From a virus (Duplodnaviria; Heunggongvirae; Uroviricota; Caudoviricetes), in IMG/VR virus record IMGVR_UViG_3300036982_001423: 64,000 bases of DNA; one strand, written 5' to 3'. The translations under genes and the position numbers were made by a program. Shown here in pieces: positions 17,436-61,229 of this stretch (positions within the stretch are counted from its first letter, which is position 1; each line of letters opens with the position of its first letter). The notes beneath the pieces were generated by a model that was not told the origin of the DNA, searched no databases, and saw only the letters and a list, made by a program, of their open reading frames with translations.

Positions 17436-19067
17436 ATGACAACCGTAAAAAGCGAACTACTAACACACATTAAAGCGAAATATTCAATTATCGCCCTTCA
17501 GACTTCAGAAGAAGCCAGAGCGATCCGCATAATTGGAGAAATCGCAGCCGACCCGCAGACCGTAAAAAGACAAGTCTATATCGGCAGCATCACAAAGGGA
17601 TTATACCCCGCAGACGACGAAAAATCTTCTGGTTATTGTGCAGCCATCGACCTACTCAATATGATTGAGGAACAGCAAAACCAGACCAAACCCGCGCCGA
17701 CAATTTACATATTGCTCGACCAACACGAAGCGATCACAAACGACCTTACATATCGCCGGAAACTGCGAGATCTTCAGACCTTGTTAAAAGCGAAAAACTC
17801 AACAATTATTTTGATAAGCCCCACCGTAGAAGTGCACCCGGACTTATCAAAGACCATTACGGTTTTTGACCTGCCACTACCTGATAAGGTAGAACTTGAA
17901 GAAATCTTATGTACGCGGGTAAAATACCTACAAAAACAGGTAAAAACACTCAGGGATGAGATCACCAGTAAACCCGAACAAACCGCCAGTATCCAAAAGA
18001 AACTGGACACACTCGTACCGATCACCGAAGCACTCATACGACAAGCTACAGAGCAAAAGGATGCAATTGTTTCAGCCTTACAGGGAACAACCGGAGGAGA
18101 AGCAGATCAGACAATCGCCAAATGTATAGTTCTTAAAGATCTCAATATCTCAACAATTTTACAGGAGAAGAAGCAGATCGTTAAGAAATCCGGAGCACTC
18201 ACCTATCAGGAAACCGACGAAACAATCGCCGGAATAGGAGGGTTGAAAAACCTCATAAATTGGGGAAAATCAGCCCGGAACCGCTTTACTGAGACCGCAC
18301 GAAAGTACGGATTAACCCCGCCGAAAGGAGTTATTTTCGTAGGAGCACCGGGAACGGGTAAAACGTTAAGCGCAAAAGCACTTTCCAATCTATTCAATAT
18401 CCCCCTACTGACCTTAACAATGGCGGAAATGACTTCCAAGTACTACGGACAGACCGGCAATAACATGATAGCAGCGATCAAGCTGGCACAAGCTATGTCA
18501 CCCTGTATTGTGTTTGTCGATGAAATCGACAAAATGTTCGGTACTTCAGGAGGGAACGAACACGAAGAAAGCGCACGTACACGAGGAGCACTCTTAACCG
18601 CAATGGAAGAAAGCACAGGGATTTTCTGGTTAGCAACATGTAACCAACCCACTGCATTAGCGCCGGAACTGTTAGCCCGATTTCCTACTGTATTCCATGT
18701 AGATTTACCAAGCCCGACAGAGCGCAGGGAAATTTTTAGTATTCACCTAAAAAAGATCAACCGCGACCCAGTAAAATTTGACCTTGACCGCTTAACCGCC
18801 GTCAGTGACGGGTATGTTGGAAGGGAGATCCGGAACGCTTTACAGGAAGCGTTAGGACAATCTTTTGACGAGGGTATAGAGATCACAACCGATCATATCA
18901 TAAAAGCGATCCGCACGATCACCCCAACCAGCGTACAACGTAAGGACGATATCGGCAGGATCAGGAAATGGTGTGAATTAAACGCACGACCCGCCAACGA
19001 GCAACCGGAGAAACCGGAAAGCCCGACAATGAGCGAAGCAGATCTCAACAAAGAACTTGAGATCTAA
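17436..19067 (+). CDS. AAA-family ATPase (classical AAA clade) with about 290-aa N-terminal domain
   Basis: Walker A GAPGTGKT, Walker B IVFVDEID, second region of homology ALLTAMEE...ATCNQPTALAPELLARF; start placed at 17436 after conserved leader+SD (track ORF extends to 17331). Confidence 0.85.
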   Translation: MTTVKSELLTHIKAKYSIIALQTSEEARAIRIIGEIAADPQTVKRQVYIGSITKGLYPADDEKSSGYCAAIDLLNMIEEQQNQTKPAPTIYILLDQHEAITNDLTYRRKLRDLQTLLKAKNSTIILISPTVEVHPDLSKTITVFDLPLPDKVELEEILCTRVKYLQKQVKTLRDEITSKPEQTASIQKKLDTLVPITEALIRQATEQKDAIVSALQGTTGGEADQTIAKCIVLKDLNISTILQEKKQIVKKSGALTYQETDETIAGIGGLKNLINWGKSARNRFTETARKYGLTPPKGVIFVGAPGTGKTLSAKALSNLFNIPLLTLTMAEMTSKYYGQTGNNMIAAIKLAQAMSPCIVFVDEIDKMFGTSGGNEHEESARTRGALLTAMEESTGIFWLATCNQPTALAPELLARFPTVFHVDLPSPTERREIFSIHLKKINRDPVKFDLDRLTAVSDGYVGREIRNALQEALGQSFDEGIEITTDHIIKAIRTITPTSVQRKDDIGRIRKWCELNARPANEQPEKPESPTMSEADLNKELEI

Positions 19068-19226
19068 ACTTTTTTGTTGCTTTGTGTATATACATACACA
19101 AAACGAACACACCGATCACCCCGGTAAAAAAGCATTCAACAGAACAGCCATGAGAACACAGCGCACGACCAGAACGGGAACCCCCGCAAAACGGTCACAG
19201 CGCACGTTTATAGGAGGATCAACAGC

Positions 19227-19604
19227 ATGAGCCACATAACAACCGTAAGCACTAAAATAGTGCTTAAAAACGAGCAGATGATTAAGAACGCACTCACCGT
19301 AATGAGTAAGCAATTTGAGGGCATGACCTTTCAAAAAATGGATGAAAGCACCATTATGGTGAGATACGCAAAAATTGAGAACTACCAGACACACGGAAAC
19401 CTCAGGTTCATTAAGAACCCCGCCGGTATTTGGGAGATGCAGCTAGATACGTGGATGTGCGACGCGGAGATCGCTAAAGTCAGAGAAGCGTTTTTCGTGC
19501 AGTATCAGACCGCCGCAGTATCTTCATATCTGGCACAGAAAGGATATTCGACTACCAAGAAGAACGACGGCAAAAACGTAATCCTTTCCGCAGTGAGGTA
19601 CTAA
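19227..19604 (+). CDS. hypothetical protein
   Basis: SD AGGAGGATCAACAGC-ATG. Confidence 0.6.
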   Translation: MSHITTVSTKIVLKNEQMIKNALTVMSKQFEGMTFQKMDESTIMVRYAKIENYQTHGNLRFIKNPAGIWEMQLDTWMCDAEIAKVREAFFVQYQTAAVSSYLAQKGYSTTKKNDGKNVILSAVRY

Positions 19605-19605
19605 A

Positions 19606-19812
19606 ATGTCAGAACAACTCACAATAACGATCACCCCCGACGGAATAAAAATCGATGCAGCCGGATACACCGGGAATAAATGTATAGTGGAGCAAGATGC
19701 ATTAGAGAAGTTTTTACTTCAGACCGCCGGAGTTAGCACACGGAACAAAAACCAGAAAAGGAAACTTGAAACCAGCTATCAGAAAGCCCCCGGTAATCAG
19801 GTGAGGTATTAA
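19606..19812 (+). CDS. hypothetical protein
   Basis: coupled ORF; ends VRY like preceding gene. Confidence 0.5.
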   Translation: MSEQLTITITPDGIKIDAAGYTGNKCIVEQDALEKFLLQTAGVSTRNKNQKRKLETSYQKAPGNQVRY

Positions 19813-19814
19813 TT

Positions 19815-20579
19815 ATGGCAGTACCAACGGAAACATTAGACAGATCAATTTTTGTTGTCGGTATAAAAATGGGAAGCCCGAACCAGAGTAAAGGTGAAGA
19901 TCTGGACGAGTATGTTAGACAACTCACATACAAGAAACCGAAAGCTGAACGGTTACAGATCGGGAAAGTCCGGCAATCGATCAACGTAGTGGTTGACGGA
20001 ACATGCATGAAATTTTTCAACGTGAAGATCACCAACCAAGCCGGAAAAGAAACCCTTGAACGGGAATGCGCCCGAGCTGACGCAGAGATGAAGAAGATCG
20101 ACAGCACTATGCATGTAACCCCGGTCTTTTTCGAGGTAAAAGTATCATCCATGAACGCCGGTAACATGTTTGATCAAATGAAAGAACAGCTAAGCGTCCA
20201 AGTCCATCAAAAGGTACTGGATAGAGTAGAGAGCGCAATTGAGAACAGCCGGAACCCCGACGGCACGTATAAACCGATGACCGGCAAAACCCGCACAGCC
20301 TTGATCGCTATGTTAGACAAGATCAAGGAGATCAACGTATTAGGTGACGACGAAGTAGGAAACCGCATTGAAACCATGAAAGGACAGATCACCGAGGGCA
20401 GTTTAATCCCTATGCGAGATGAAATTTTAGCCTTGTTGGAGGATGTACAGGGCAGCGAGAACCTTGAAATCAGCCCCGACCAGACCGAGAGCGAGCACGA
20501 CCCGGACGAAAAGGAATACGAAGCAAAACCCTTCAAACCGAGCGCACAGGACGAGATCGCATTAGAGGATCTCATCTAA
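19815..20579 (+). CDS. hypothetical protein with acidic C-terminus
   Basis: 254-aa ORF. Confidence 0.6.
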   Translation: MAVPTETLDRSIFVVGIKMGSPNQSKGEDLDEYVRQLTYKKPKAERLQIGKVRQSINVVVDGTCMKFFNVKITNQAGKETLERECARADAEMKKIDSTMHVTPVFFEVKVSSMNAGNMFDQMKEQLSVQVHQKVLDRVESAIENSRNPDGTYKPMTGKTRTALIAMLDKIKEINVLGDDEVGNRIETMKGQITEGSLIPMRDEILALLEDVQGSENLEISPDQTESEHDPDEKEYEAKPFKPSAQDEIALEDLI

Positions 20580-20601
20580 TTTTTCGGAGAGATAAAGCAC
20601 C

Positions 20602-20787
20602 ATGATAGGAATATGCAAAAGCCGGAAGTCAGGACACACGGACACCGAGATCGACACCCTAAAAGAATGGAGATGTTGGAAATGTGTAGATATCGCATTC
20701 ATTAATCCGGAGGATAGAATTAAAGCTCAGCAAAAAGACTATTTTGCTGTTTGTGAGATGTGCCGGGATTTTACCCCGAAACCCTGA
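20602..20787 (+). CDS. small Cys-rich protein
   Basis: SD GGAGAGATAAAGCACC-ATG; C...C...CWKC...CEMC. Confidence 0.5.
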   Translation: MIGICKSRKSGHTDTEIDTLKEWRCWKCVDIAFINPEDRIKAQQKDYFAVCEMCRDFTPKP

Positions 20788-21072
20788 TATCCCCTCTATC
20801 ACCCGGCGTACCCTTAAGGGTACGCCTACCCTCTTTCCCCCCAAACAATGCATATACACAAAGGACTTTTTAAAGCACCTTTAGGGTTTAATCCCGTTGT
20901 GTATATCCCCGTATTATCGAAGTTAGTACGGAACGTTTTACACGCTGTTAAGCGTTATATTGTCCTTATGACGGTTCACTGCCGTATAAGGATTTTCAAA
21001 AGTATAGCTATTCGACCAACCCCGCACCCGACCCGTATAAAGGTCACAGTGCCCGTTTATTTGAGGATAATC

Positions 21073-21507
21073 ATGAGATCAAGCAAAGAGTTTAAATTAG
21101 AACCAACCAAGACCGGAACCCCCGCCTTGCCTGCCGGAGGAGGAGCTTATACGAATAAGTACTCAGCCCACACCGTACTATCAGCCGACCTTACTCATAA
21201 AACAGCCTTGTTTATCAAGACTGCCGGTAATCTGGCATGTATGAACGACCAAGCGATTATACCGATCCAGCAGGGGGATATCATAGTAATCTTACAGGGT
21301 CTTAAACCCGCGAGCGACCAGAACCCCGCAGCTAATATCGATGCATGGAAGATCACCGAGATCACCCCGACCACTGCAATAGGCGAGAGTATTGAGATCA
21401 CACACAACCAGATCCCTTATTCCGTGATAGAAGGATCACAAATCTACCACAACCGGGACGGCAGTTATTTCTGTTTATCCCCAGTAACAGGAGATAAAAA
21501 TGTCTGA
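21073..21507 (+). CDS. hypothetical protein (start chosen at ATG 21073 with SD GAGGAT; track ORF extends to 20848)
   Basis: Upstream extension has no SD and overlaps conserved motif region. Confidence 0.5.
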   Translation: MRSSKEFKLEPTKTGTPALPAGGGAYTNKYSAHTVLSADLTHKTALFIKTAGNLACMNDQAIIPIQQGDIIVILQGLKPASDQNPAANIDAWKITEITPTTAIGESIEITHNQIPYSVIEGSQIYHNRDGSYFCLSPVTGDKNV

Positions 21508-21916
21508 TATTTCAATGGGTATTAACCCTGAAATGGTTGAAATGCTCTTTAAAGAGTTGCAGATCAAGCCGGATCGCTATGACGCGATTTACGAGGTTTT
21601 AACCGAAGCAATCGCAATGTCAGGAGAAGAACCCCCAAACCCTTTCGATATGTTACAAAGGTTTATCGCCAAGACCTCAAAGGCTAATGAGCTAGCCTTC
21701 TTATGCTTCATGGCAGGCACGATCACCGGAACAATTGGCACACTCATCCAGAGCCACCAGAACACCCCGGAAATGTTGAAAAAAGCGATGATCTTTGGAG
21801 CTACACACTCCGAAGACGTACAAAAATTAGCCGCTGAAAATGGGTATAATCTCCCAACAGCAACCGCAGCAGAAGCCAAAAAGGTAAAACACCCCGACGA
21901 TATAATGTACGGATAA
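21500..21916 (+). CDS. hypothetical protein
   Basis: ATGTCTGA overlap; 138 aa. Confidence 0.55.
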   Translation: MSDISMGINPEMVEMLFKELQIKPDRYDAIYEVLTEAIAMSGEEPPNPFDMLQRFIAKTSKANELAFLCFMAGTITGTIGTLIQSHQNTPEMLKKAMIFGATHSEDVQKLAAENGYNLPTATAAEAKKVKHPDDIMYG

Positions 21917-22015
21917 TGTACGGATAATCATAATATTTTTGCACACCCCTAAAAACCATATACTTTTTGGGTCAGACCGAGAAGGATATTTTCAATATGT
22001 ATATGCAGGAGAATA

Positions 22016-22299: not shown

Positions 22300-22566
22300 C
22301 ACCCACGAATGCCGAGCAACCGAGCCACAGATCCAATGCCAAGTTCCGATCCGCAGACGAATGCCGAGTAGTTTTGGGGAACACGGCATTGGCTCCACAG
22401 GTAAGGCATTAGGCTTCCATCCTGTATATGCAACACGAACTCCACTGGCGAGTCAAGGTATTTCGTGTGGAACACGGCATTAGGCTTCGACGGAATGGTA
22501 AAGAACACGCCCAGAATACCCCAGACAATGGGTATGTATATGCACAAGACATTAGGCATTACGACG
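22300..22566. repeat. cluster of GGCATTAGG / AATGCCGAG motifs in non-coding region
   Basis: At least 8 copies of the GGCATT/AATGCC core; same motif in opposite orientation at 15649..15816. Confidence 0.55.
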
Positions 22567-22576
22567 GAGGTTCAAA

Positions 22577-22780: not shown

Positions 22781-22986
22781 CTATTTCGGTTCATAGTTCC
22801 GAGGTTAAATATAACCGGGATAATACCCCGGCAGTATAGCAGGAGAACATCATTTTCCCTCAAAATATCAATATATTTTTCATACCTGTATATACATCGG
22901 TTCAATCCGAGGGCAGGTTTTCAGAGTATCGTAGGAGAACACAGCGCACAACTCAAAGAAAGTTAAGCGCACGTTAAAGGAGATTG

Positions 22987-23628
22987 ATGTATATGCACAG
23001 ACAAGAACCTATCGAAACTATTGTGGAACCCGCCCATTTCCGGGCAGGAGTTTACCACCAAACACAAACATTGAAAATCTATCAGGACGACGATCCGCAA
23101 AACCCCCGGACGGAATGGGATAACTTCGGGAAAATGGTATGCTTCCACAAAAGATACCAGTTAGGGGATGTAGGACACGGCATTAGTGAGGACGATTTTT
23201 CTGCATGGTCGGAACTGGAACAGTATTTGATTGAGGAGAAGGGTGCGGCTGTAATTCTGCCAATTTATATGTATGATCATTCCGGGCTATCAGTGAATAC
23301 GACAGGATTTTCGTGTTCATGGGATAGCGGTCAGATTGGATATACATATATAACCTGCAAAGAAATACTGGAGAATTGGGGGGAGAACCAGATCACAAAG
23401 GAACTCCGTCAGAAAGCCCATGATCTTTTAGTTGGAGAAGTCCAGAACTACAACGATTATCTCACCGGAAATGTATATGGATATATTCTGGAAGATGAGA
23501 ACGGTAACGAACTCTGGTCATGTTGGGGATATTCCGGGGATGGCGCAGTCGAGCAGATCAAATCCGAACAACTGTATATACACAACTCACAGAAATCCAC
23601 AGGAACTCAAGTTAATGCAGAGGCGTAA
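22987..23628 (+). CDS. hypothetical protein (MYM start)
   Basis: SD AAAGGAGATTG-ATGTATATG. Confidence 0.6.
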   Translation: MYMHRQEPIETIVEPAHFRAGVYHQTQTLKIYQDDDPQNPRTEWDNFGKMVCFHKRYQLGDVGHGISEDDFSAWSELEQYLIEEKGAAVILPIYMYDHSGLSVNTTGFSCSWDSGQIGYTYITCKEILENWGENQITKELRQKAHDLLVGEVQNYNDYLTGNVYGYILEDENGNELWSCWGYSGDGAVEQIKSEQLYIHNSQKSTGTQVNAEA

Positions 23629-24136: not shown

Positions 24137-24274
24137 CTCCGGTATATATATACATTTTTCAGATACGCGGAAACAGCCGACCCCCCACAACACCCCGTTG
24201 TTCCGCCCGGTTATGGCGATGTATATACATTTTACAAATATTCAACGCATTTGGATTCGGAGAGATGATAACAC

Positions 24275-24824: not shown

Positions 24825-25129
24825 TGTATATGCAGTTATCAAACTATTTCGAGAGGGCAGTCCCAAAAGAAGAAGATCCGACGTTAAGCAGTCCGATCAT
24901 ATATCGTGCTATCCAATTTGAAACAAAACTATCACCAGAGAGTATCAAAGAGATCGCCAGAGATGTTTATCCGGGCATAGAAAATCTAATAACAATTATC
25001 GGAGTAACCCCCAAAAGGATAACCCGTTTCAGGGTATCAGTGACGGATGCAAGCACATTCGCATTCGCTAATCTCATATACCAGTGGATGAATTGGGAAA
25101 ACAACGACAGCAAACAGAATAAATGGTGA
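24824..25129 (+). CDS. hypothetical protein (MYM start)
   Basis: GTGATGTATATG context. Confidence 0.55.
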   Translation: MYMQLSNYFERAVPKEEDPTLSSPIIYRAIQFETKLSPESIKEIARDVYPGIENLITIIGVTPKRITRFRVSVTDASTFAFANLIYQWMNWENNDSKQNKW

Positions 25130-25382: not shown

Positions 25383-25964
25383 ATGTATATGTATCCCGTA
25401 CACACAAAAGGCGCGAGCCGAGTATATTCAATCGACGGCAAAGAAATTATCAGCGTTGCATTTTTCGATGAACACGGCATTGTCGCACAAACGACATTCG
25501 GATGGCTTGAAACCGGAGATCCGGATTCAACGTATCGGAAAGATGTTGAGGCATTGGAGTTAGAGAAAACCCCCAAGCGCAAACTGAAACCAGAGTTTTC
25601 AGAGATGTATATACAGCAACAGCCATTCATCGCCAGAGGTGAAGTTGCGATTGGGGGAACCGTAAAAAATACCGGATATATCTTGTATCTACCCTACCTG
25701 AAAGACGATTGGATGGTGGGTAAACAAACCGAAATTAGCGGTATTTATCAATCAGAGTATATCATTTACCACAACCCCAAGAACGGATATATTATTACTA
25801 CTTACAATGGAGGAAAACAGATTAAAGAGAATGTGGATTTTGTGGAACGGATCGCCATCCTATTAAAACCGATGGGGATACGTGAGAACACATTGAACTC
25901 TATATACATCATCGAGAACCGTCAAGAGATCGAGAAGTTGATCAGGGATTTCCATCATGCCTGA
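25383..25964 (+). CDS. hypothetical protein (MYM start)
   Basis: SD AAGGAGTGA-ATGTATATG. Confidence 0.6.
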   Translation: MYMYPVHTKGASRVYSIDGKEIISVAFFDEHGIVAQTTFGWLETGDPDSTYRKDVEALELEKTPKRKLKPEFSEMYIQQQPFIARGEVAIGGTVKNTGYILYLPYLKDDWMVGKQTEISGIYQSEYIIYHNPKNGYIITTYNGGKQIKENVDFVERIAILLKPMGIRENTLNSIYIIENRQEIEKLIRDFHHA

Positions 25965-26877: not shown

Positions 26878-26977
26878 AATTTTTCTATGTGTATATACAG
26901 TAGAATCCCACCAGCGTTGTGTAGTCCCCGAACCAGCAGAACGACGGAGAGGCAACACTGAAAGGGTTAGGAGATGA

Positions 26978-28807: not shown

Positions 28808-29218
28808 ATGTATATGCAGAACTCAAATGGCAACACTGGGCAGGAACGAAGTCTGGAAAATCCAATACCCGATCCGCTTGATACTACTATCTCGGCATTG
28901 AAACACGAAAGCGACCTGAAACGATGGAAATATATTGAGCGATTAGCGGCATTTGAACACGACCAGTGGATCGGATATTCCATGTCGATCTTACCCGCAT
29001 TTGACGAGTATATTACGGTATTCAACGGTTTAATTGATCATTACAATTTAACCCCAAAAGACCCGTTATACAAAACGGTAAAACGGTTAGATGAAGAATA
29101 CCGGGAACGTAACCGCAAATGGGCTGAATGTCGGTATAGTTTCAGCAAATTACCGTTTGAACAGAAAGAAAAGTTCCGGTATATGGGAAGGCAAGCTTAC
29201 GAGAGGATGATCAAATGA
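28808..29218 (+). CDS. hypothetical protein (MYM start)
   Basis: GAGATGAATGTATATG. Confidence 0.6.
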   Translation: MYMQNSNGNTGQERSLENPIPDPLDTTISALKHESDLKRWKYIERLAAFEHDQWIGYSMSILPAFDEYITVFNGLIDHYNLTPKDPLYKTVKRLDEEYRERNRKWAECRYSFSKLPFEQKEKFRYMGRQAYERMIK

Positions 29219-29361
29219 GTGGTATTCAAGAACCCCCGGATAATTATTACTTGCCGGACGAAGATTTCCGGTTGATGGAGAGCCTGTATATACAGACGCG
29301 AAAACAAGAACGGGCAGAAGCAGAGTATCTGCTCAATCACGCATATCAACAGAGAAACTAA
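29215..29361 (+). CDS. small hypothetical protein (48 aa)
   Basis: ATGA overlap. Confidence 0.45.
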   Translation: MSGIQEPPDNYYLPDEDFRLMESLYIQTRKQERAEAEYLLNHAYQQRN

Positions 29362-29841
29362 ACTATATATACACTCATAAAACGAGTCGTTCTTCTATGA
29401 AGTTTGGACTCAAATGGCTCCAAATTTTGATGTATATACACAAACTTTGGCAAACGAGTTCGAGGGTCGTTGGGGGAACACAAGATATTTCTTTTTTGAG
29501 GGTGCATATAAATTAACACTCCCGTAAGGTAGCAGCCAAGCCTATCTCACTTTGGATGAGAAAACCCCGGCGCGAATCCGGGCGGGAGAATGGGATCATG
29601 CAGGAGCGTTACGCTCTCAATGCATTCCCGTTTAAAACATGATTCACGGCAATTGGTAAGACCCTGATGATCTAAAAAGATGTATGTGAGATGGTATAAA
29701 TTATATGAGAGATTGTTGATGAACGCTAACCCGATAGGAGTACTACTATCAGGGTGTGTTTGTTTCATCCGGCTTGTGGTTCGCTACCACATCCCGGATT
29801 TTACCCGTTAATGGGTTTTCTTTTTAAAAGGAGATATTATT

Positions 29842-49309: not shown

Positions 49310-50014
49310 ATGTCTTTAGCAAAAAAATTAGCAGCGTGTTTTATTATATTAGCAGTCTTTATTATTTTAACGACACCCCTATCAGAAAGTTCAGCGTTAT
49401 TGGGGGGTAGTATTCCGGGCGTATTAACGTGTTTAGGTGTAGTTATAATTATAGAATGGATATGGAAAAAATTACCCGATATATGGGCAGAAAAAAAATC
49501 ACAAGATGAAATTTATGGAGATAACAGTATGGCAGTAGCAAAGAAAACCGTAATGAAAAAGAAACCGAAAGCCGAACCGGGATTGTTCCAGAAGTTCAGT
49601 GCATATGTAGCCAAGAACCGTGCTGCGAATGCGAAATCTGGCGAACCTTCATTGACAGACGAATTCTCGAAAATGGGTGCAGATTGGGGTAAGAATTTAA
49701 CGAAAGGCATGGCAGAAGTCGGCAGGTCAGAGGAGGAGAAACTATCAGGTAAAACCAAAAAACCTGTAACGGGTACGTTCCAAGACGACGATGATTACGC
49801 CCAAGATACCTTATTTGGAGGTAAGAAAACAAAACCCGTTTCTCAACCTACACAAACAATCCGTAACGATCCATTAATAGACGACGGCGAGATCAAGATT
49901 ACGTTTTTAGAGTCGGGTAAATTGATAATCCAACGGTCTTCTGGTTCGGGTGTTGCGTTAGACAAATCCGAACAAATGCGTGTATATACATTACTGAAAA
50001 AACTAATCGGGTGA
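49310..50014 (+). CDS. membrane-anchored protein
   Basis: SD AAGGAGGAGAAAACTTAATC-ATG; two N-terminal TM helices. Confidence 0.6.
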   Translation: MSLAKKLAACFIILAVFIILTTPLSESSALLGGSIPGVLTCLGVVIIIEWIWKKLPDIWAEKKSQDEIYGDNSMAVAKKTVMKKKPKAEPGLFQKFSAYVAKNRAANAKSGEPSLTDEFSKMGADWGKNLTKGMAEVGRSEEEKLSGKTKKPVTGTFQDDDDYAQDTLFGGKKTKPVSQPTQTIRNDPLIDDGEIKITFLESGKLIIQRSSGSGVALDKSEQMRVYTLLKKLIG

Positions 50015-50368: not shown

Positions 50369-50580
50369 TCGATGATGTATATGCATTACTAACATGGCTT
50401 GAAGACCAGTCGTTAGAGTGTCATAATAAAAAAGGTAAAAAGGGTTTAACATTGATAGACGACCACGGATATTTCATGCAGGAACAGGCGTATAATCGTG
50501 TAATCTATTATATCAAAACAATGGGGAAACCAACACCCCCCTACAAACACGAGAACCAAGCGGGTGAGAATAGGTGGTAA
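50365..50580 (+). CDS. hypothetical protein
   Basis: SD AAAGGAGGTTCATT-ATG. Confidence 0.55.
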   Translation: MIDDVYALLTWLEDQSLECHNKKGKKGLTLIDDHGYFMQEQAYNRVIYYIKTMGKPTPPYKHENQAGENRW

Positions 50581-51504: not shown

Positions 51505-51745
51505 AGAATATCCGGAAGGAGGTCTGAACCATTTAGCGTCTGGTGTATATACAGTTACGAAAACGTTCTGCACCCAGATGGATTGTATCAACCGCACAAG
51601 TTGTCACGATAAAGAAGGTGTGAATGCCGAGATTGGTTTATTAGACAAAGACGCTGGTTGCTATATGATCTGCCACGAATATCAGGTCGTATTATCGGAT
51701 AAAGAACAGGATAAAAAAGTATATTGGGCGAGGAAACAGATATGA
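51494..51745 (+). CDS. Cys-rich protein
   Basis: SD GGGAGGATAT-ATG; C..C...C...C..C. Confidence 0.55.
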   Translation: MTTEEYPEGGLNHLASGVYTVTKTFCTQMDCINRTSCHDKEGVNAEIGLLDKDAGCYMICHEYQVVLSDKEQDKKVYWARKQI

Positions 51746-52882: not shown

Positions 52883-53160
52883 GCGTAGTATCGACAATGA
52901 TCCATCGTGGTGATTACGCAGAGCGTATCCAGAAAATATATGCCTATGTGAAAAAGAAAAACGATAAATCATTTACTTATCAAGAACTGGTAAAGAAAAT
53001 CCCGGAGTTCCATCAGGCATACTTGAAAAGCATGCGGGAATCTAATGTCATTAAGTTACTGAACGGAAAACGTAAAGTAACCTCTACGAACAAGAAACAT
53101 CCGACAGTATGGGTATTTACTACAGAAGCTCTTTTTCTATTGGAACAGACAAGCCGGTGA
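52879..53160 (+). CDS. hypothetical protein
   Basis: ATGA overlap. Confidence 0.5.
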   Translation: MSVVSTMIHRGDYAERIQKIYAYVKKKNDKSFTYQELVKKIPEFHQAYLKSMRESNVIKLLNGKRKVTSTNKKHPTVWVFTTEALFLLEQTSR

Positions 53161-53165
53161 GTAGG

Positions 53166-53720
53166 ATGCCAATTACTAGTAAGAAAAGCAAACGCAATTA
53201 CCCGCACCACATTGTTTTAGATAAAGACGACACCGATACCCTAGTGGAGAACTTGTTTACTCATAAAACTACAGGGAACAGTAGCGAATGGATACCGAAC
53301 TATATCCCGCAGGATGTATATGCACCGTATCAATGGGGTAATAGCACATATCCGAGTAATATCCCATCAATCTCTAATCCGTCAGTTCCCCCGGCTAAAC
53401 AACAGTTCAATCCGGAAGACCATCAGGGTAAATACTGTGCGCACGTTCACCTTACATATCACGGTGTAGAGCATACGGGTATACTGTTTGTAAAAAAATG
53501 CGGGCATTGGAAATTACTAGAGTATAATGGCGCTAAAATAGCGGGCGGTAATTCCGGTTCATTCGAAGCGGAATGCAAGAAAGGTATATTAAAAATCGAA
53601 GTTATCCATGTCTTATACGACGCAGATAAACCGATAGTGCAACCTGCAAAAGAACTGGAAGGGTATGGCGAGTTAGACATTTTAGATATTATTGGCGAGA
53701 ATGGGTTGGAGATATCATGA
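53166..53720 (+). CDS. protein with C-terminal LDILDIIGENGLEIS tag (family of 3)
   Basis: C-terminal tag shared with 27200..27502 and 42550..43179. Confidence 0.55.
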   Translation: MPITSKKSKRNYPHHIVLDKDDTDTLVENLFTHKTTGNSSEWIPNYIPQDVYAPYQWGNSTYPSNIPSISNPSVPPAKQQFNPEDHQGKYCAHVHLTYHGVEHTGILFVKKCGHWKLLEYNGAKIAGGNSGSFEAECKKGILKIEVIHVLYDADKPIVQPAKELEGYGELDILDIIGENGLEIS

Positions 53721-54147: not shown

Positions 54148-54413
54148 ATTACATTATATCAGAGGAACAACTATCAGACCTCGAAGATTATCGGGACAGT
54201 GCATATACAGAACAGATATTAGTTATCGGTTCGTTAGTTCGGGACATGCCATTAGAACAGGAGTTAAGATCTTTTGGAGAGAAAATATTAGACGACCTGT
54301 GTAACCTGTTTCGGTGGACGAACAAAGAGGCGAATTTCAGACCGTGGAATATCGGGCATATTGAAGATGTACTACGGGCATATCGTGAAAAATACAGGGT
54401 GAAACCAGAATGA
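54144..54413 (+). CDS. hypothetical protein
   Basis: ATGA overlap. Confidence 0.55.
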   Translation: MNYIISEEQLSDLEDYRDSAYTEQILVIGSLVRDMPLEQELRSFGEKILDDLCNLFRWTNKEANFRPWNIGHIEDVLRAYREKYRVKPE

Positions 54414-54621: not shown

Positions 54622-54828
54622 ATGATATTAGAAATTATAATTGGATTTGTTATAGGAAGCACATTCACTATAACCTGTTATGAATGGTCGAACCTTAGAG
54701 ATACATACCGTAAAAAGAAAGAAGATAAAATGTTCAACAAACTAAAAAAAGAGATCACATCAGACCTTCTTGAACGCATACAAAATATAGAGAAACAAAT
54801 GAAAGAGTTAAAGGAGTTAAAATCATGA
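54622..54828 (+). CDS. membrane-anchored coiled-coil protein
   Basis: SD AAAAGGAGTTTAAAAAAAT-ATG; TM helix. Confidence 0.5.
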   Translation: MILEIIIGFVIGSTFTITCYEWSNLRDTYRKKKEDKMFNKLKKEITSDLLERIQNIEKQMKELKELKS

Positions 54829-55181
54829 CGACACAACTAATTAAATGCACATGTAAATCAGAATTTCAGGACGCAATGTATGGACAGGGGATCAGAGTAG
54901 GGAATACTACCTCAAGTAGCCAGTATAGGTGTACTGTATGCAGCACCGTTAGCGGCACAAAAACTGCATCTACAGTAAAAGCACCCGTAATTGCAGCAGC
55001 TACGGCAGCCATTGAGAAAGAGAAGGGGAAAGAGAAAGCCGTATCAGAAGCAGCGTCAAAGAAATCAAGTAAAGGCGGTAGCAGTAAATCGAAATCCAAG
55101 AAAGCCGTAAAAGCAGGCGGCAGCAAGGATATCAAGAAAGAGCCAAAGAAACAAAAGAGCGTGAAGGGGACTAAGAGATGA
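54825..55181 (+). CDS. Zn-ribbon protein with lysine/alanine-rich histone-H1-like tail; candidate DNA-binding/packaging protein
   Basis: CTCKS...CTVCS then KGKEKAVSEAASKKSSKGGSSKSKSKKAVKAGGSKDIKKEPKKQKSVKGTKR. Confidence 0.6.
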   Translation: MTTQLIKCTCKSEFQDAMYGQGIRVGNTTSSSQYRCTVCSTVSGTKTASTVKAPVIAAATAAIEKEKGKEKAVSEAASKKSSKGGSSKSKSKKAVKAGGSKDIKKEPKKQKSVKGTKR

Positions 55182-55502: not shown

Positions 55503-55811
55503 ATGTGTGCGGATGATACTGAAGGAATAGTTGATATGTTTTGGGGGGGTTTGTATAATATATATAAATCCCTCAAACGCTGGTATACGGGTATTACTCG
55601 CAACTGCGATTGTAAGTATTGGAGAAAAAAAGATCATTGTCATTATTATTACGCTATTTATCCATCTGTCCACGAAATGCCACGATGTAAAGGATGGAAA
55701 GTATGTCCACAGTGTATTGAAACACATAATTTCTGCGATTACGAGAATATCCCCGCCACCACTAGATTCAAAAAGAAATTAAATAACCAAATTGGAGGCA
55801 ATCATGTGTGA
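55503..55811 (+). CDS. Cys-rich protein, paralog A (LKRWYTGITxNCDC family)
   Basis: tandem paralog of 55804..56190. Confidence 0.55.
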   Translation: MCADDTEGIVDMFWGGLYNIYKSLKRWYTGITRNCDCKYWRKKDHCHYYYAIYPSVHEMPRCKGWKVCPQCIETHNFCDYENIPATTRFKKKLNNQIGGNHV

Positions 55812-56190
55812 AGATGCAGGAGGAATAAACGCTATTATATCTACTTTTAAGAGAGATTATCACAACCTTAAACGTTGGTATACAGGTATCACTCATAACT
55901 GTGATTGTAATTCATGGCATAAAAAACACTGTCTATTTTATGGAATAGACCCCCTACCCCTTTGTATTGGGTGGAAAACATGTCCACAGTTCAAGGAGAA
56001 ATCAAATGGTAGTTCTCAACCAATTTACGACGGTATTCCCGCCACCGCACGGTTCAAAAAGAAATTCCTAGCGTATGCGAATACTGATAGGGGTGCGTGG
56101 GTAGTAGCTGCCGGGTGTTTAGCCGGGATTATGCTGCTCGATGGATTTCTGATGGGGGTAATCACTGGCACGTTCCAGTTCGTTTTGTGA
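55804..56190 (+). CDS. Cys-rich protein, paralog B with C-terminal TM helix
   Basis: LKRWYTGITHNCDCNSWHKK...IPATARFKKK; 3' end duplicated again at 56355..56400. Confidence 0.55.
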   Translation: MCEDAGGINAIISTFKRDYHNLKRWYTGITHNCDCNSWHKKHCLFYGIDPLPLCIGWKTCPQFKEKSNGSSQPIYDGIPATARFKKKFLAYANTDRGAWVVAAGCLAGIMLLDGFLMGVITGTFQFVL

Positions 56191-56404
56191 AGATCAGGAT
56201 CGGTGAAATAAATGATTTGTCCGGGATGTATTTTAGCAGGGATTGCGATTTGGTATGCGTTATTTTGGGATAAAACAAAAGCATGGGTTTCAAAAAAGTA
56301 TAAATTACTCAAAGGTGAAGAACAAATTTGATTGAATGTATATGCAGGTAATAACTTTCTGATGCGGATAATTACTGGCACGTTCAAGTTCGTTTTGTAA
56401 AGAA

Positions 56405-56439
56405 TATATATATATACCCCAAGCACCTTATTACTATTA
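56405..56439 (+). promoter_or_regulatory. conserved promoter element TATATATATATA-N9-CCTTATTACTATTA (copy 3)
   Basis: see 6881..6915. Confidence 0.55.
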
Positions 56440-56459: not shown

Positions 56460-56765
56460 ATGGTAGTAAAGAACTTTTATGATATAGCCGTACGTATCCA
56501 AAACGCTAGCAACCCAATAGCAGTAGTTGGAGAATTACGAGAAGCAATGATCGCTGCACACGGAACCAACCAAATCCGTAAAGATCCGGCAGTCCTAGCA
56601 ATCTTCTATAAGGTGTATGATATGCTCGGTGCACCGACAGAGAAAGAGATGCATTTTGCATATAAACAATGTGAAGCGTTCAGCCAAACCCCCGATCTAC
56701 CGGGTAAAGCCATTGGTAGTTATGGTAAAAAAGGTTGCGGCTGTGCAGTAAAGAAGCGACGGTGA
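56460..56765 (+). CDS. hypothetical protein (KKGCGCAVKK C-terminus)
   Basis: 21 nt downstream of conserved promoter element. Confidence 0.55.
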   Translation: MVVKNFYDIAVRIQNASNPIAVVGELREAMIAAHGTNQIRKDPAVLAIFYKVYDMLGAPTEKEMHFAYKQCEAFSQTPDLPGKAIGSYGKKGCGCAVKKRR

Positions 56766-56770
56766 ACCTC

Positions 56771-57403
56771 ATGACAACGACACGCAAATTAGAAATATAC
56801 CCGATTTCCCGGTGGAAACCCGCAAGCAAACAGCAAGCAATAGCAGTACAAGAATTAGGTGCTACACACATTATGTTCCGTCCAGATGAACGGTCATTAC
56901 CTTTATGGGTACAGAAAGAACTTACTGAAAAAGGATTAACCGCAATTAAAATTGGATATACCACATATGTAAGTAATACCTATGCATGTGTCCCTAAAGC
57001 ATCCATAGTCGGTAATTTCGGTAAGAAGAAGCATCCAAAATTACCCATAGTAGACATATCAACAGAACAACTATTCAATAGTTGGATTAAAAAAGAACGT
57101 TTAAGCCACGCTAAACGGCTTGCCAAAAGTATCCCCCACGAACCGATATGGTACGATGAAATTTCACATTCATGGGAAGCAGAGGAACCTGTAACTCAAG
57201 GTAAGTTCGGTGCGAAGAAGTCCGGTTGCGGCTGCACTGAAACCGTAGGGGGATTAGCACGTTTAAAGGAATATACGGAACTAATAAAAGAGATGCAAAA
57301 GGAGAAAGAGCGTAAGAAAAAAGGGACAATCATATATGGAATAACGGGTAGTGGCAAACACCTATCGGCAAAAGCAATAGCAAACTTAAAAAGAAACCCG
57401 TAA
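56771..57403 (+). CDS. hypothetical protein (contains KKSGCGCTETVGG and P-loop-like GITGSGKH)
   Basis: 210 aa; the GxxGSGKH match is weak. Confidence 0.5.
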   Translation: MTTTRKLEIYPISRWKPASKQQAIAVQELGATHIMFRPDERSLPLWVQKELTEKGLTAIKIGYTTYVSNTYACVPKASIVGNFGKKKHPKLPIVDISTEQLFNSWIKKERLSHAKRLAKSIPHEPIWYDEISHSWEAEEPVTQGKFGAKKSGCGCTETVGGLARLKEYTELIKEMQKEKERKKKGTIIYGITGSGKHLSAKAIANLKRNP

Positions 57404-57878: not shown

Positions 57879-57880
57879 AT

Positions 57881-58370: not shown

Positions 58371-58407
58371 AACATGGTCGGGAAAACTTATTGTGGGTAG
58401 TATCGAA

Positions 58408-58989: not shown

Positions 58990-59018
58990 AAAGCAGATGC
59001 CGGTTCGGGTGATGAACT

Positions 59019-59318: not shown

Positions 59319-59322
59319 ACTT

Positions 59323-59589: not shown

Positions 59590-59891
59590 CTAACTCTCTT
59601 TTGTAACATTTATGCCTCTTATGCCCCAATGGTAACACGGTGCTTCGACGTAGTGCTGGCAACTTGTTACCATTATGTTACCATTACTTTTGTGTATATA
59701 CATTAAGGAAAAGCAATAGCGGGGTTTAAAGCCCAAAAAGCATTGGCAAGTATCAAAGTGCGATCAGAAACCCGGATTGGATTTGGTGAAATATGTGTCG
59801 TTAAAAAATTTGCTAATTGGTTTATATGATCGGGTAATTATATTATAGCACAACTAACTATAACAAAGTATAAATACTTTTACGACGTAGA

Positions 59892-60044
59892 ATGTGTATG
59901 GTAAACCTAAATGCAAGAACCACAACCATCGCCATAACTACAGAAACATACCTACGATTGGAAAAATTAAAGATAATCCCTCAAGAACCATTTGATAATG
60001 TAATTCAAAAATTGCTTGACGAACACAATAAATCCAAGGTTTGA
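59892..60044 (+). CDS. archaeal-type putative antitoxin (VapB-like small protein)
   Basis: ITTETYLRLEKLKIIPQEPFDNVIQKLL matches the E(T/V)YxxLxxLK ... (S)FxDVIxxLL signature of the archaeal putative-antitoxin family. Confidence 0.5.
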   Translation: MCMVNLNARTTTIAITTETYLRLEKLKIIPQEPFDNVIQKLLDEHNKSKV

Positions 60045-60048
60045 TCAC

Positions 60049-60258
60049 ATGCTTTTCAATCAACCAAAAAGCAAGAATTTTGGAAATCCTATAGATAATT
60101 ATGGGGAAAAAGTCCAACTATCTATAAGTAGGGATCTCAAAGAACTTTTAGAATTAGAAAAAATTATCCCTCAAGAGCCTATGGAAATTTGTATACGTCG
60201 AATTATATCAGAACGTAAAGCGTTCCTATCAGAACTCAAACCCTTAAAAAGAGAGTGA
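60049..60258 (+). CDS. second antitoxin-like domain protein
   Basis: LKELLELEKIIPQEPMEICIRRII repeats the same motif. Confidence 0.5.
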   Translation: MLFNQPKSKNFGNPIDNYGEKVQLSISRDLKELLELEKIIPQEPMEICIRRIISERKAFLSELKPLKRE

Positions 60259-60764
60259 TTATGGAATCATCTATTCGTATGAGTTATAATGATTTCAGAC
60301 AAAATGTGCTAAAGAAACCCCCCATATTCCAATACGAAGGTAAAGGCGAACCCATATCATGCGTATATTTCATAAAATTTGATTACTATTGTCCAAACAT
60401 GGGTGAAATGAAATTAGTTAAAATCGGTCAAAGCATAGATCTAAAATGTCGATTAAAAGCCCACACCAAGTTTCCAAATGGAAAACTCATAGGTATCATA
60501 CGGAGTGAAACCCCACATTTATTGGAAACAAAGATTCACCAGATATTTAAAAATAAAAGATATGGGGGTTGTGAATACTTCCTAGAAACTGATGAAATAA
60601 AAGAATTTATCTTTGATTATATGTCTGATGACGATTATATGGAAGTAAAATATTTCAATCAATGCCACCACTTTCATATAATAGAAAAATCAGAATATCG
60701 TCAGATGTTTGAAAAATGGAGGGACTTATGGACATATCAGAAATCGGCAATTCAATCCAAATAA
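60255..60764 (+). CDS. T5orf172 / GIY-YIG-superfamily domain protein
   Basis: CVYFIKF...LVKIGQSIDLKCRLKAH...LETKIHQIF...GCEYF matches GIY ... YIG ... R ... E ... (E)wF layout. Confidence 0.55.
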   Translation: MIMESSIRMSYNDFRQNVLKKPPIFQYEGKGEPISCVYFIKFDYYCPNMGEMKLVKIGQSIDLKCRLKAHTKFPNGKLIGIIRSETPHLLETKIHQIFKNKRYGGCEYFLETDEIKEFIFDYMSDDDYMEVKYFNQCHHFHIIEKSEYRQMFEKWRDLWTYQKSAIQSK

Positions 60765-60982
60765 GGATCACATATGAAGATGCAGAAAGATTGCAGACGA
60801 TGAAAACTCGCCCCCAACAACCGTGGCACAAGGCGTTAAACAATCTCTTAAAAGAATACGACGAATTGAAAAAAGAAAACGCCGTATTAAAACGACAGTT
60901 ACGATCACGATATGAAGTCAAAAGCCCGGCACTTCCGGGTAATGTCCAAGCAATTGAACTGAAAGCAGAGCAATTAGAATAG
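60728..60982 (+). CDS. ribbon-helix-helix (CopG/Arc-like) candidate + coiled-coil
   Basis: N-terminal beta-strand/helix pattern IQIRITYEDAERLQTM; leucine heptads at C-terminus. Confidence 0.45.
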   Translation: MDISEIGNSIQIRITYEDAERLQTMKTRPQQPWHKALNNLLKEYDELKKENAVLKRQLRSRYEVKSPALPGNVQAIELKAEQLE

Positions 60983-61229
60983 TGTATATACACAAACTTA
61001 AAACAACCATTTCTTTCATTTTTCATGTATCTTTGTGCAACAAAACAGAGATCGTTGAAATTAGAGGCACATTAATTCTACCGACCGTTCAGTTATACAA
61101 TCATGCATCTACTTCCTAAATAGGATGTAGTCATTTCGAGGTTAAACACGCTCTAAAATGACACTTTAGTAGATAATAATATACCTAAAATCAGAAAGGT
61201 AGATATAGTTTTACACCAAATCAAATTGT

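Follow-up and report, generated by a model that had tools for sequence, protein, structure and literature searches.

Cluster O mycobacteriophages carry 17-bp dyad-symmetric repeats, 5′-TGTTCGGNNNCCGAACA, that are specific to this phage lineage, absent from the host and from other phages, and predicted to be bound by a dimer; in Corndog, 34 copies are found per 70 kb (14 intergenic, 10 at the 5′ ends of open reading frames (ORFs) and 10 within ORFs), and they are densest among small leftward-transcribed genes (PMC4351075). In cyanobacteria, the highly iterated palindrome HIP1, GCGATCGC, is 15–300-fold over-represented, occurs about once per gene and is found in every reading frame within ORFs; selection is on the DNA rather than the peptide, and a link to a methyltransferase (MTase) has been proposed (PMC5861425, PMC4390886). 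In Cluster A mycobacteriophages, the stoperators (L5 gp71 sites) are asymmetric, 13 bp long and aligned with the direction of transcription; their repressor binds as a monomer, and this one regulator represses an early promoter and also blocks elongation (PMC6550527, PMC9283540). Cluster K mycobacteriophages have start-associated sequences (SAS), which lack symmetry and are in every case tied to a start codon, at a fixed position a little upstream of it (PMC3203893). Here we analyse a 10-bp palindrome, TGYATATRCA, that is massively over-represented in a 64-kb stretch of viral DNA (Caudoviricetes; IMG/VR record IMGVR_UViG_3300036982_001423; 64,000 nucleotides (nt), hereafter the window). The palindrome is a heritable trait of one viral lineage, and we tentatively read it as the binding site of a dimeric regulator.

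The word TGTATATACA occurs as 23 exact copies in the window, against 0.08 expected from dinucleotide shuffles, and 61 sites match it at one mismatch or fewer. These counts bear out the excess that the original prediction had reported by eye, and the ten coordinates it listed are all exact copies. Nearly all one-mismatch sites are TGCATATACA (n = 13) or TGTATATGCA (n = 13), and since these are reverse complements of each other, the degenerate palindrome TGYATATRCA is the true core. Its four words together account for 50 copies, compared with 0.9 (third-order Markov model, Markov-3) or 5.5 (Markov-5) expected, an enrichment of about 55-fold over Markov-3. The broader consensus T-R-Y-A-T-A-T-R-Y-A has 78 matches (4.2 expected, Markov-3), five of which are TATATATATA words that form part of a separate element. 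A literature search with the motif words returned only eukaryotic POU 'MORE' sites and primers, and nothing relevant.

In a survey of single substitutions, T1, A4, T5, A6, T7 and A10 are essentially invariant and tolerated changes are limited to the mirror pairs 2/9 and 3/8, with mirror variants occurring at similar frequency (G>A at position 2, n = 9; C>T at position 9, n = 11). The half-sites vary independently, with 23 TT, 26 mixed and 1 CC among the 50 core copies. Every allowed variant retains strict pyrimidine–purine alternation, and (YR)5 decamers in general show no enrichment in the window. Owing to the mirror-symmetric degeneracy, the independent half-sites, the six invariant positions and the lack of general (YR)5 enrichment, the motif fits base-specific reading of double-stranded DNA by a two-fold symmetric dimer, and its sequence pattern does not fit shape readout by the TATA-binding protein (TBP) or an RNA signal. 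A strand-oriented signal resembling Chi or KOPS, also suggested originally, finds no support: mirror symmetry holds for the variant spectrum as well as for the site, and the two asymmetric words are equally frequent, 13 against 13, with no orientation bias. As for the extended form once described as frequent, G flanks on both sides are explained by codon position, and only two immediate-flank rules are robust: T is avoided just before the motif and A just after it. A hairpin or cruciform was rejected as a general feature, since flank complementarity is near background (z ≤ 3 at two positions) and long complementary arms are present only in five paralogous cassette copies.

Within ORFs, the excess is not a consequence of the encoded proteins. 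A synonymous shuffle within each ORF, keeping every protein and the per-gene codon usage, leaves 7.3 ± 1.9 core copies and codon permutation leaves 0.6, against 35 observed, so that the codon-aware nulls also fail to reproduce the counts. Tripeptides of the form [VA]Y[TA] number 27 where 10.3 are expected. Copies fall in phases 0/1/2 in the ratio 2/7/21, all three frames being used as had been claimed, and codon usage alone predicts shares of 0.12/0.20/0.69 (chi-square P = 0.65); as the split matches codon frequencies, the excess is uniform across frames, each showing about 50-fold enrichment. It is the nucleic acid that is constrained and not the protein, in agreement with the original prediction. 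Both codon choice and amino-acid sequence are bent to the motif, and the V/A-Y-T/A preference is merely its cheapest encoding.

To place the motif in its lineage, relatives were recruited via homologues of the AAA ATPase and the SPFH protein encoded in the window. The motif-rich relatives are six metagenomic genomes with AAA-ATPase identities of 41–74% (L001, a 180-kb contig, 56%; L003, 74%; L004, 41%; L337, 66%; L338, 58%). Core copies per 10 kb amount to 7.8 in the window, 7.4 in L001, 3.6 in L003, 6.5 in L004 and 9.0 in L174, and broad-consensus matches, some of them overlapping, to 10 in 9 kb of L337 and 9 in 8 kb of L338. The relatives have a higher GC content and favour the TGCAT half-site with the consensus unchanged, the genomes spanning 39–50% GC. 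L004 and L005 are 100% identical, which makes a comparison of site conservation within that pair uninformative. Outside this group the motif is rare: 160 unrelated loci (1.88 Mb) contain 6 copies, or 0.03 per 10 kb, which speaks against the host or compositional trait held out at the start as the simplest alternative, and a Methanolinea chromosome fragment has no copy. The contigs L166, L167, L172 and L173 have 1 core copy in 75 kb, about 0.1 per 10 kb, despite TnpB/SPFH identities of 68–74%, and L172, of this motif-poor group, comes from the same sample as L004. Because contigs that share genes or a sample with motif-rich genomes are themselves motif-poor, the motif is heritable in one viral lineage and does not reflect habitat or host composition.

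Contig L174 (JGI 3300037067 Ga0378408_0015641), deposited at NCBI as a contig of a Methanoregula sp. metagenome-assembled genome (MAG), encodes nothing but small ORFans and an SPFH protein and has 11 core copies; almost certainly, it represents viral DNA from this lineage that was binned together with the probable host. Scans of IMG/VR returned no match with the single AAA protein, only relatives of ≤39% identity, all without the motif, with an AAA profile, and 120 scattered chance matches but no lineage member in a motif-pair search. AAA-profile scans of metagenomes and genomes found mostly cellular Ycf46-like genes at 30–40% identity, which were used as negative controls. The idea that the module of AAA, DUF1257-like and DUF2997-like genes is always paired with a palindrome of its own is not supported, as only 4 of 33 AAA-carrying IMG/VR loci have a strong palindrome.

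Taken with the nulls, this distribution bears on whether the word could be functionless, a by-product of composition or codon use or the debris of mobile repeats. The strand is A-rich and TA-rich words are common on it, the Markov-5 expectation does rise to 5.5, and some intergenic copies are duplicates of paralogous cassettes. Against this stand the observed totals (50 against 0.9/5.5 in the Markov models, 35 against 0.6/7.3 in the codon nulls), the persistence of the word across genomes of 39–50% GC whose proteins are 41–74% identical, and its absence from compositionally similar virus contigs; moreover, in-frame 10-bp copies within ORFs cannot stem from insertion. This explanation is effectively refuted already, and we give it next to no weight.

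The placement of copies was counted with corrected gene calls. An 11.7-kb stretch is identical in the independent assembly L170, and database gene calls there confirm the assigned starts. Among the 50 core copies, 16 are intergenic, 4 overlap a start codon and 30 (60%) lie inside ORFs. The claim that copies sit mostly inside genes therefore holds for their number but not for their density, which is 4–13 times higher between genes than within them (about 4-fold per kb in the window, where 20 of the 50 copies fall within the 15% that is non-coding). In L001, 13 of 16 copies are intergenic, gene edges included, as are 10 of 10 in L337. The first 15.9 kb of the window, described earlier as nearly lacking the motif, is depleted of it but not devoid, with 3 of 50 copies (2876, 6493 and 8457; P = 5e-4), and 3.9 kb of lineage-conserved ORFs contain none. 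The core copies are as follows, with strand stated where one was assigned and flank positions counted from the first T of the motif as 0.

2876–2885: TGCATATACA, intergenic, 18 nt past an ORF end, T9 run upstream
6493–6502: TGTATATACA, intergenic
8457–8466: TGTATATACA, intergenic, TTTTTATAA upstream
15905–15914, plus strand: TGTATATACA, array unit, TAAAATTA upstream, A at +16, TTTTTTTAAAGCAC 12 nt downstream
16121–16130, plus strand: TGTATATGCA, array unit, paralogue of 15905, 216 nt apart
16373–16382, plus strand: TGCATATACA, array, TTAAAGCTC box upstream
19085–19094, plus strand: TGTATATACA, heads the DUF1257-like/DUF2997-like/254-amino-acid (aa) operon, 142 nt before its ATG; conserved in L001, L003, L004 and L337
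20849–20858, plus strand: TGCATATACA, heads the 144-aa/138-aa operon, 224 nt before the real start at 21073; conserved in L001, L003, L004 and L337
21998–22007, plus strand: TGTATATGCA, cassette, 60 nt upstream of ORF 22058
22423–22432: intergenic, within the GGCATT/AATGCC repeat cluster
22535–22544, plus strand: intergenic, 42 nt before ATG 22577 (GGAGG Shine–Dalgarno)
22887–22896, plus strand: intergenic, ATATATTTTT upstream
22988–22997, plus strand: TGTATATGCA, overlaps a start codon, the motif-internal ATG being the called start 22993
23573–23582: ORF, phase 1
24220–24229, plus strand: intergenic, 45–55 nt before the next ATG
24825–24834, plus strand: TGTATATGCA preceded by A, on a start codon (start 24824)
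25606–25615: ORF, phase 1
26890–26899, plus strand: intergenic, 13 nt past an ORF end, TAAAATTTTT upstream
28809–28818, plus strand: on start codon 28808; the start of the L001 orthologue (20721) also carries a copy
29285–29294: ORF, phase 1
29431–29440: short ORF, phase 2
30081–30090: ORF, phase 2
32397–32406: ORF, phase 2
33754–33763: ORF, phase 2, 33 nt before the next ATG
34759–34768: ORF, phase 1
35788–35797: MTase ORF, phase 2
36430–36439: MTase ORF, phase 2, close to its 3′ end and 58 bp from 36488
36488–36497: just past the first in-frame ATG (36484) of the putative nuclease ORF downstream of the MTase
37590–37599: ORF, phase 2
37720–37729: ORF, phase 0
38685–38694: ORF, phase 0
39649–39658: ORF, phase 1, 66 bp from 39715
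39715–39724: ORF, phase 1
40274–40283: ORF, phase 2
41992–42001: ORF, phase 2
42387–42396: TGCATATGCA, ORF, phase 2, the only C/G-C/G variant
44318–44327: ORF, phase 2
44792–44801: ORF, phase 2
45136–45145: ORF, phase 2
48120–48129: ORF, phase 2
49981–49990: ORF, phase 2, 33 nt before the next ATG
50376–50385: 11 nt into an ORF, phase 2
51544–51553: ORF, phase 2
53315–53324: ORF, phase 2
54200–54209: ORF, phase 2
56337–56346, plus strand: intergenic, 6 nt past an ORF end, with a promoter-like TATATATATATA element about 60 nt downstream
59693–59702: intergenic
60983–60992: intergenic, immediately past a stop codon, 247 nt before the integrase-like gene
62748–62757: ORF, phase 2, 36 nt before the next ATG
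63634–63643: ORF, phase 2
2573–58269 (span), no strand: 23 weaker 10-bp copies (TRYATATRYA, non-core), starting at 2573, 2970, 23343, 24145, 24749, 25384, 26311, 28518, 29364, 31212, 31458, 32316, 32927, 36693, 41086, 41177, 43842, 47386, 48450, 48727, 49600, 52667 and 58260

Relative to downstream genes, a single class of position is enriched: 11 of 87 copies lie −2 to +12 nt from the next start codon, against 2.9 expected, often occupying the spacer between Shine–Dalgarno sequence and ATG or providing the ATG itself, in a variable register (−1, +5, +9 to +11). At a distance of 13–29 nt upstream of starts there is no copy. One start-codon placement is common to orthologues of only 33% identity (window 28808 and L001 20721), with the register differing by 6 nt. 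Copies inside ORFs are spread uniformly along them (quartiles 9/7/9/10), and their positions are not conserved between orthologues, for example 23573 compared with L003. The proposal that in-ORF copies serve as promoters of the next gene was rejected on this uniformity and on a distance histogram with no enrichment at 30–100 nt.

The near-start class and its shared placement in distant orthologues could also point to a signal in RNA, a translational repressor or endoribonuclease site acting at ribosome-binding regions in the manner of T4 RegA/RegB, the more so as nearly all genes are on one strand and every copy is transcribed. Such a signal gives no reason for a perfect palindrome with mirror-symmetric variants, however; the 10-mer forms no stable hairpin, flank complementarity is weak outside a few paralogous cassettes, most copies are far from starts, and no Rfam family matches in the window. 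In a minus-strand block of L004, three copies occur with asymmetric variants in either orientation. We consider an RNA-level role very improbable.

Between genes, the copies are set in recurrent cassettes. Alignment of eight intergenic copies from four genomes reveals homologous cassettes running from a T-rich stretch through to the 'GCGCACGTTTA-AGGAGG' end of a leader, in the order T-rich stretch, palindrome, C/A-rich leader with CACGA, conserved GCGCACGTTTA-AGGAGG end and ATG; in some cassettes the T-rich stretch belongs to a terminator-like hairpin, as its tail. In all four genomes a copy is located 76–190 nt upstream of the DUF1257-like/DUF2997-like/254-aa operon and another 82–326 nt upstream of the 144-aa/138-aa operon, while the DUF1257-like and 144-aa operons have no internal copies. 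The parts of these cassettes in the window, and the array in which three further copies lie, are the following.

19040–19075, plus strand: terminator-like hairpin and T-run, ending the AAA-ATPase gene, 10 nt before copy 19085
21963–21994, plus strand: terminator-like hairpin and T-run, 4 nt before copy 21998
19095–19226, plus strand: C/A-rich cassette leader, ending in AGCGCACGTTTATAGGAGG before the ATG
15622–17330, plus strand: large non-coding array upstream of the AAA-ATPase gene, of 216–220-nt units, including copies 15905, 16121 and 16373

Each array unit comprises a C-rich tract, AAATTACACGGA, the motif and a TTT(T)AAAGCAC box, and an array of this kind is also present in L001, L003, L337 and L338. 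The flanks of 45 intergenic or edge copies are directional: A occupies +16 in 38 of 45, G occupies +10 and +14 in 23 each, T is found at −9 and −8 in 25 and 26, and the stretch from −10 to −7 is 70–80% A/T. Copies inside ORFs show these features weakly. In several cassettes, TTTTAAAG boxes occur 11–20 nt upstream of the motif. With the usual archaeal spacing of about 26 nt from the TATA centre to the start, transcription would begin at +10 to +19, that is, at the conserved purines, and the palindrome would lie at about −16 to −7.

Such a context raises the question of whether the palindrome could act directly as a core promoter element, be it a TATA variant bound by host TBP or an easily kinked or melted promoter-proximal (YR)5 decamer; promoters would then be scattered across the genome, gene interiors included. 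Its core is TATATA-like, all allowed variants alternate strictly between pyrimidine and purine, and hybrid words, TATATATACA and TACATATACA, occur beside strong-promoter-like TATATATATA elements at 6881, 8265 and 56405. Intergenic copies head conserved operons and follow terminators, with directional flanks and a conserved purine 6 nt downstream. The invariant TG/CA ends and six T/A positions, together with the unenriched other (YR)5 words, nevertheless indicate base-specific recognition rather than shape readout by TBP, and a perfect palindrome would fire both ways, yet about 98% of genes are on one strand. Eleven copies fall on start codons or Shine–Dalgarno spacers, where a promoter would truncate the gene. 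Judged as TATA boxes, the copies have the TATATA core and, in cassettes, the context, but no purine-rich B recognition element (BRE) was found upstream. The earlier suggestion of pervasive intragenic TATA-like promoters thus survives in part: intergenic copies do lie in conserved promoter/leader cassettes, but in-ORF copies are without promoter context such as the upstream A/T stretch and are unplaced relative to downstream starts, none lying 13–29 nt upstream. We regard a core promoter role as unlikely, if still worth serious consideration. A bacterial sigma-70 or extended −10 element was also tried and rejected, as the motif fits the −10 consensus poorly and sigma-70-like promoters are not in excess in the window (50 found, 50.7 in shuffles).

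A second repeated element comprises TATATATATA followed after 6–9 nt by (G)CCTTATTACTATTA, at 6881–6913, 8265–8295 and 56405–56439, each 20–50 nt upstream of a gene start (6933, 8315 and 56460). Two of the three are within the motif-poor first 16 kb, and by its sequence the element looks like a distinct, stronger TATA-type promoter class. Clusters of GGCATT/AATGCC occupy non-coding DNA at 15651–15996 (9 copies in 350 bp) and 22308–22555 (7 in 250 bp), with ACACGGCATT present five times; relatives have their own versions (CTAGGCAT / CGAATGCCTAG in L001, CAATGCCGAG in L003; also L337 and L338). Such clusters might mark a replication origin or serve as iteron-like sites for a second DNA-binding protein. 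The ORF called at 20848–21507 has non-coding first 75 codons (20848–21072), which are the leader of a motif cassette; the gene starts at 21073 according to database calls on the identical contig L170 and on orthologues.

In archaea, a protein bound between the TATA element and the start blocks recruitment of RNA polymerase or promoter opening. The position of the palindrome, between a TATA-like element and the conserved A, makes an operator role the most likely, and we prefer, with slightly less than even confidence, to read the motif as a regulon site of the operator type, supplemented by dispersed copies and recognised by a dimeric sequence-specific protein. In this model, TGYATATRCA would be bound by a two-fold symmetric, dimeric protein specific to one lineage of large uncultivated viruses, and the intergenic palindrome would be flanked downstream by the conserved A and upstream by a TATA-like, A/T-rich element whose centre lies about 26 nt before that A. 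One regulator would control numerous transcription units in the ORFan-rich, non-structural portion of the genome, perhaps to shut them off in a timed manner or to keep them silent while the virus is in a carrier or lysogenic state; the window does have an integrase-like gene. Copies on start codons and in ORFs would be extra binding sites, acting as roadblocks to elongation or as local concentrators of the regulator, as proposed for stoperators, and would have accumulated wherever the coding cost was lowest.

Several candidates for the binder are encoded in the window. The only recognisable sequence-specific DNA-binding candidate is, speculatively, the winged-helix protein at 4472–5671, and the many zinc-ribbon proteins are likewise candidate binders. 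The product of 54825–55181, named in the original prediction as histone-like, combines an N-terminal CxxC...CxxC zinc ribbon with a tail rich in Lys, Ser and Ala that recalls H1-type tails; even at E ≤ 5, Pfam yields no match to a histone or HU family and so does not support the role given to it.

A number of points weigh against the operator model. The in-ORF majority is explained by it only by analogy, with the roadblock role borrowed, and a pure operator model needs no such copies; 60% of core copies in the window and 9 of 12 copies in L174 are in ORFs, uniformly distributed and without promoter flanks. Conservation of the A at +16 drops to about 5/19 in L337 and L338, and transcription starts are placed from geometry alone. 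A Pfam scan of 112 further ORFs gave no helix-turn-helix (HTH) or ribbon-helix-helix candidate. The archaeal host assignment rests on binning and gene sharing, and the AAA/DUF1257-like/DUF2997-like module and NUMOD3/HNH genes are commoner in bacteria and phages. In the Cluster O study, the authors thought it unlikely that their repeats act in transcription initiation (PMC4351075).

The dispersed copies are also what would be expected of a HIP-like element, kept for or by a DNA process other than transcription, whether a cognate (possibly viral) MTase with biased repair, self-marking, architecture, packaging or replication, with the promoter-cassette copies as one subset. The hallmarks of HIP1 are present, namely strong over-representation of a palindrome that appears in every frame of ORFs and to which the choice of codons and amino acids is bent (PMC5861425), and HIPs co-occur with MTases that recognise them (PMC4390886). 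The window encodes an N6/N4 MTase with an adjacent nuclease-like ORF, the junction flanked by copies 58 bp apart, and L004 has two MTases:

35750–37119, plus strand: restriction–modification (R-M)-like pair, the N6/N4 MTase (35750–36478) followed by a 214-aa ORF that overlaps it by 4 nt and contains a PD...EIK motif

From this motif, read by eye, the 214-aa ORF looks like a PD-(D/E)xK nuclease and the pair like a viral Type II R-M system; PDB and Pfam searches gave no support for a nuclease. R-M sites are 4–8 bp and normally avoided in genomes that meet the enzyme, whereas the motif is 10 bp and about 55-fold enriched, although protection by the encoded MTase is conceivable. In view of the HIP1 precedent, the original suggestion that the motif is the recognition site of this pair is retained as a minority rival. 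In-ORF copies are uniformly scattered at positions not conserved between orthologues, and HIP1 itself surfaced in our control loci. Against a HIP-like element, density is 4–13 times higher in non-coding DNA and zero in conserved core ORFs, the operon-head copies are conserved with directional flanks, and there is strong regional bias within 64 kb (P = 5e-4). One-base deviants of HIP1 are concentrated at the outermost bases, whereas here the outermost bases are invariant and positions 2–3 and 8–9 vary, and 10 bp is long for an MTase target. On balance this explanation, with its several variants, is improbable but far from negligible.

A broader proposal, which we hold to be somewhat less probable still, casts the palindrome as a mark of 'self' spread over the genomes of large methanogen viruses that form a new family, with a virus-encoded dimer or modification enzyme recognising 50–100 sites per genome at operon heads and in gene interiors. 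If true, the virus would silence, compartmentalise or chromatinise its own DNA, or tell it from the host chromosome. The system would then be the equivalent, in an archaeal virus, of the stoperator or HIP1 networks, and would depend on the archaeal TBP/TFB/histone machinery in place of bacterial sigma factors.

The remaining genes of the window bear on the identity of the virus and its host. About 153 of 156 ORFs are on the plus strand (about 98%), the GC content is 0.41, the coding strand is strongly purine-rich, and nearly all proteins are ORFans. A megablast of 20 kb against known phages gave no nucleotide match, the window has no transfer RNA genes, and an exact look-up of its AAA ATPase found nothing on record. 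Many of its proteins are zinc-ribbon proteins, and genes with recognisable features include the following.

4472–5671, plus strand: 399-aa winged-helix protein, N-terminal Pfam HTH_24/MarR, best PDB match an Lrs14-like regulator (E = 0.004)
5664–6398, plus strand, and 14530–15621, minus strand: NUMOD3/HNH homing endonuclease genes
17331–19067, plus strand: Ycf46-like AAA ATPase
30279–31202: SPFH protein
35750–36478, plus strand: N6/N4 DNA MTase
45862–46920: TnpB
61230–61814: integrase-like protein (Pfam E = 2e-4, under the curated cut-off)

The host is probably archaeal, and probably belongs to the Methanomicrobiales, because of the binning of L174 with Methanoregula, gene sharing, weak archaeal-type Pfam and PDB matches and the lack of a sigma-70 excess. 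Among the top 120 SPFH homologues, the only organism-named one is that of the Methanoregula MAG, on contig L174, and the SPFH protein of the window is identical to a record on a 115-kb contig. The closest TnpB and SPFH homologues are on other large contigs of small ORFs, whose type IV pilin N-terminal, DUF3821, signal-peptide peptidase and A24 peptidase domains we take to be archaeal. Weak Pfam matches in the window comprise DUF7129, DUF7357, DUF7560, DUF7836, DUF7838, DUF5795 and TFIIB-type zinc ribbons. The best known-phage matches of the AAA ATPase are Cluster O mycobacteriophages, at about 30% identity.

A lineage-conserved gene block (17331–21916) is shared with L001, L003, L004 and L337 and encodes the Ycf46-like AAA ATPase, a DUF1257-like protein of 125 aa (MSHITT start), a DUF2997-like protein of 68 aa (Pfam E = 0.027, below cut-off), an acidic-tailed protein of 254 aa, and proteins of 144 and 138 aa. 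The AAA/DUF1257/DUF2997 triad may resemble the cyanobacterial ycf46/ycf35 neighbourhood, and PHROG and Pfam scans of the lineage-conserved proteins assigned no function. The 222-aa ORF 56735–57403 has a C terminus, GITGSGKHLSAKAIANL, that resembles the Walker A region of the AAA ATPase, with 40% identity to the L003 AAA, and may be a truncated AAA paralogue or fragment. The Cys-rich proteins 42550–43179 and 53109–53720, otherwise unrelated, end in the near-identical LELLDIIGETGLEIS and LDILDIIGENGLEIS; the AAA ATPase and the 254-aa protein also carry short acidic-hydrophobic C termini (NKELEI, LEDLI), and a common C-terminal docking motif may be shared among these proteins. Tandem paralogues lie at 8609–8902 and 8905–9207 (39% identity) and at 55503–55811 and 55792–56190 (46% identity). 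The endonuclease gene 14530–15621 is the only long minus-strand gene and borders the large non-coding array. The TnpB of the window has a Cas12f1-like TNB domain and hundreds of homologues of 60–88% identity on metagenomic contigs, several of which adjoin a Y1 transposase, with no TnpA adjacent to the window copy; these sequences are evidence of an IS200/IS605 element that appears to circulate among such archaeal-type virus contigs.

For the long-standing question of what hyper-abundant palindromes such as HIP1 and the Cluster O repeats do, the motif offers an independent and potentially tractable example, with a sharply defined word, dimer-pointing variants and lineage-wide conservation in uncultivated, probably methanogen-infecting viruses. 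About one third of the copies lie in conserved cassettes and the rest in ORFs, a split through which one can ask directly whether promoter regulation and the marking of gene bodies fall to a single protein. Searching for the motif is also an inexpensive way of finding further lineage members in metagenomes, and it flagged L174. If the archaeal promoter geometry is true, this would be among the largest single-operator regulons described for an archaeal virus.

Among known systems, the Cluster O palindromes are the closest precedent. Both are lineage-specific multi-copy palindromes of similar copy number (50–78 per 64 kb here, 34 per 70 kb in Corndog) with a three-way placement (16/4/30 here), densest among small non-structural genes and with a predicted dimer binder. 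The sequence is unrelated to TGTTCGGNNNCCGAACA, however, and the site here is a contiguous 10-mer without a spacer, making this a resemblance of class and not homology; many intergenic copies here are in cassettes heading conserved operons, whereas Cluster O sites are mostly away from promoters, and here the host is probably archaeal and the in-ORF share larger (60%). Cluster A stoperators are similar in being dozens of short genome-wide sites, enriched intergenically or at gene junctions, in phages with an integrase, as an integrase-like gene is present here. Placement agrees in the 4–13-fold non-coding enrichment and the 10 of 10 intergenic copies of L337, but not in the 60% of window copies within ORFs. 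The site here is symmetric, 13 versus 13 in orientation, with only the flanks of intergenic copies directional; because stoperators are asymmetric and oriented, the motif is not a stoperator, and by analogy we propose a stoperator-like action for its dispersed copies.

HIP1 resembles the motif as an over-represented palindrome (about 55-fold over Markov-3 here) within and between ORFs in all frames, with an MTase encoded in the window. HIP1 is a chromosomal, GC-rich 8-mer with no reported intergenic or promoter preference, and its deviants cluster at the outer bases, whereas here an AT-rich viral 10-mer is strongly concentrated in intergenic DNA and at operon heads, regionally depleted and invariant at its outer bases. 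Cyanobacterial control loci with AAA homologues (L122–L165) contain GCGATCGC at 13–46 copies per 21 kb, reproducing HIP1. The SAS find a parallel in the 11 of 87 copies on or just before start codons, but most copies here are not near starts and their register is variable.

The PeSL (promoter early stem-loop) cassettes of T4-type phages are sigma-70 early promoters with stem-loops; both systems have a repeated terminator hairpin and promoter-like cassette between ORFan genes, but most copies here are not such units. The archaeal repressors MDR1, Phr, TrmB and NrpR use palindromic operators between TATA box and start, with a dimeric winged-HTH-type binder, and the intergenic cassettes here share this TATA–palindrome–start geometry as deduced from sequence. 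Those operators occur at a handful of promoters, whereas 50–80 sites are found here, ORF interiors included. Compared with these precedents, what is new is probably the word itself, in a new, probably archaeal virus lineage, with a clearer anchoring in promoter cassettes.

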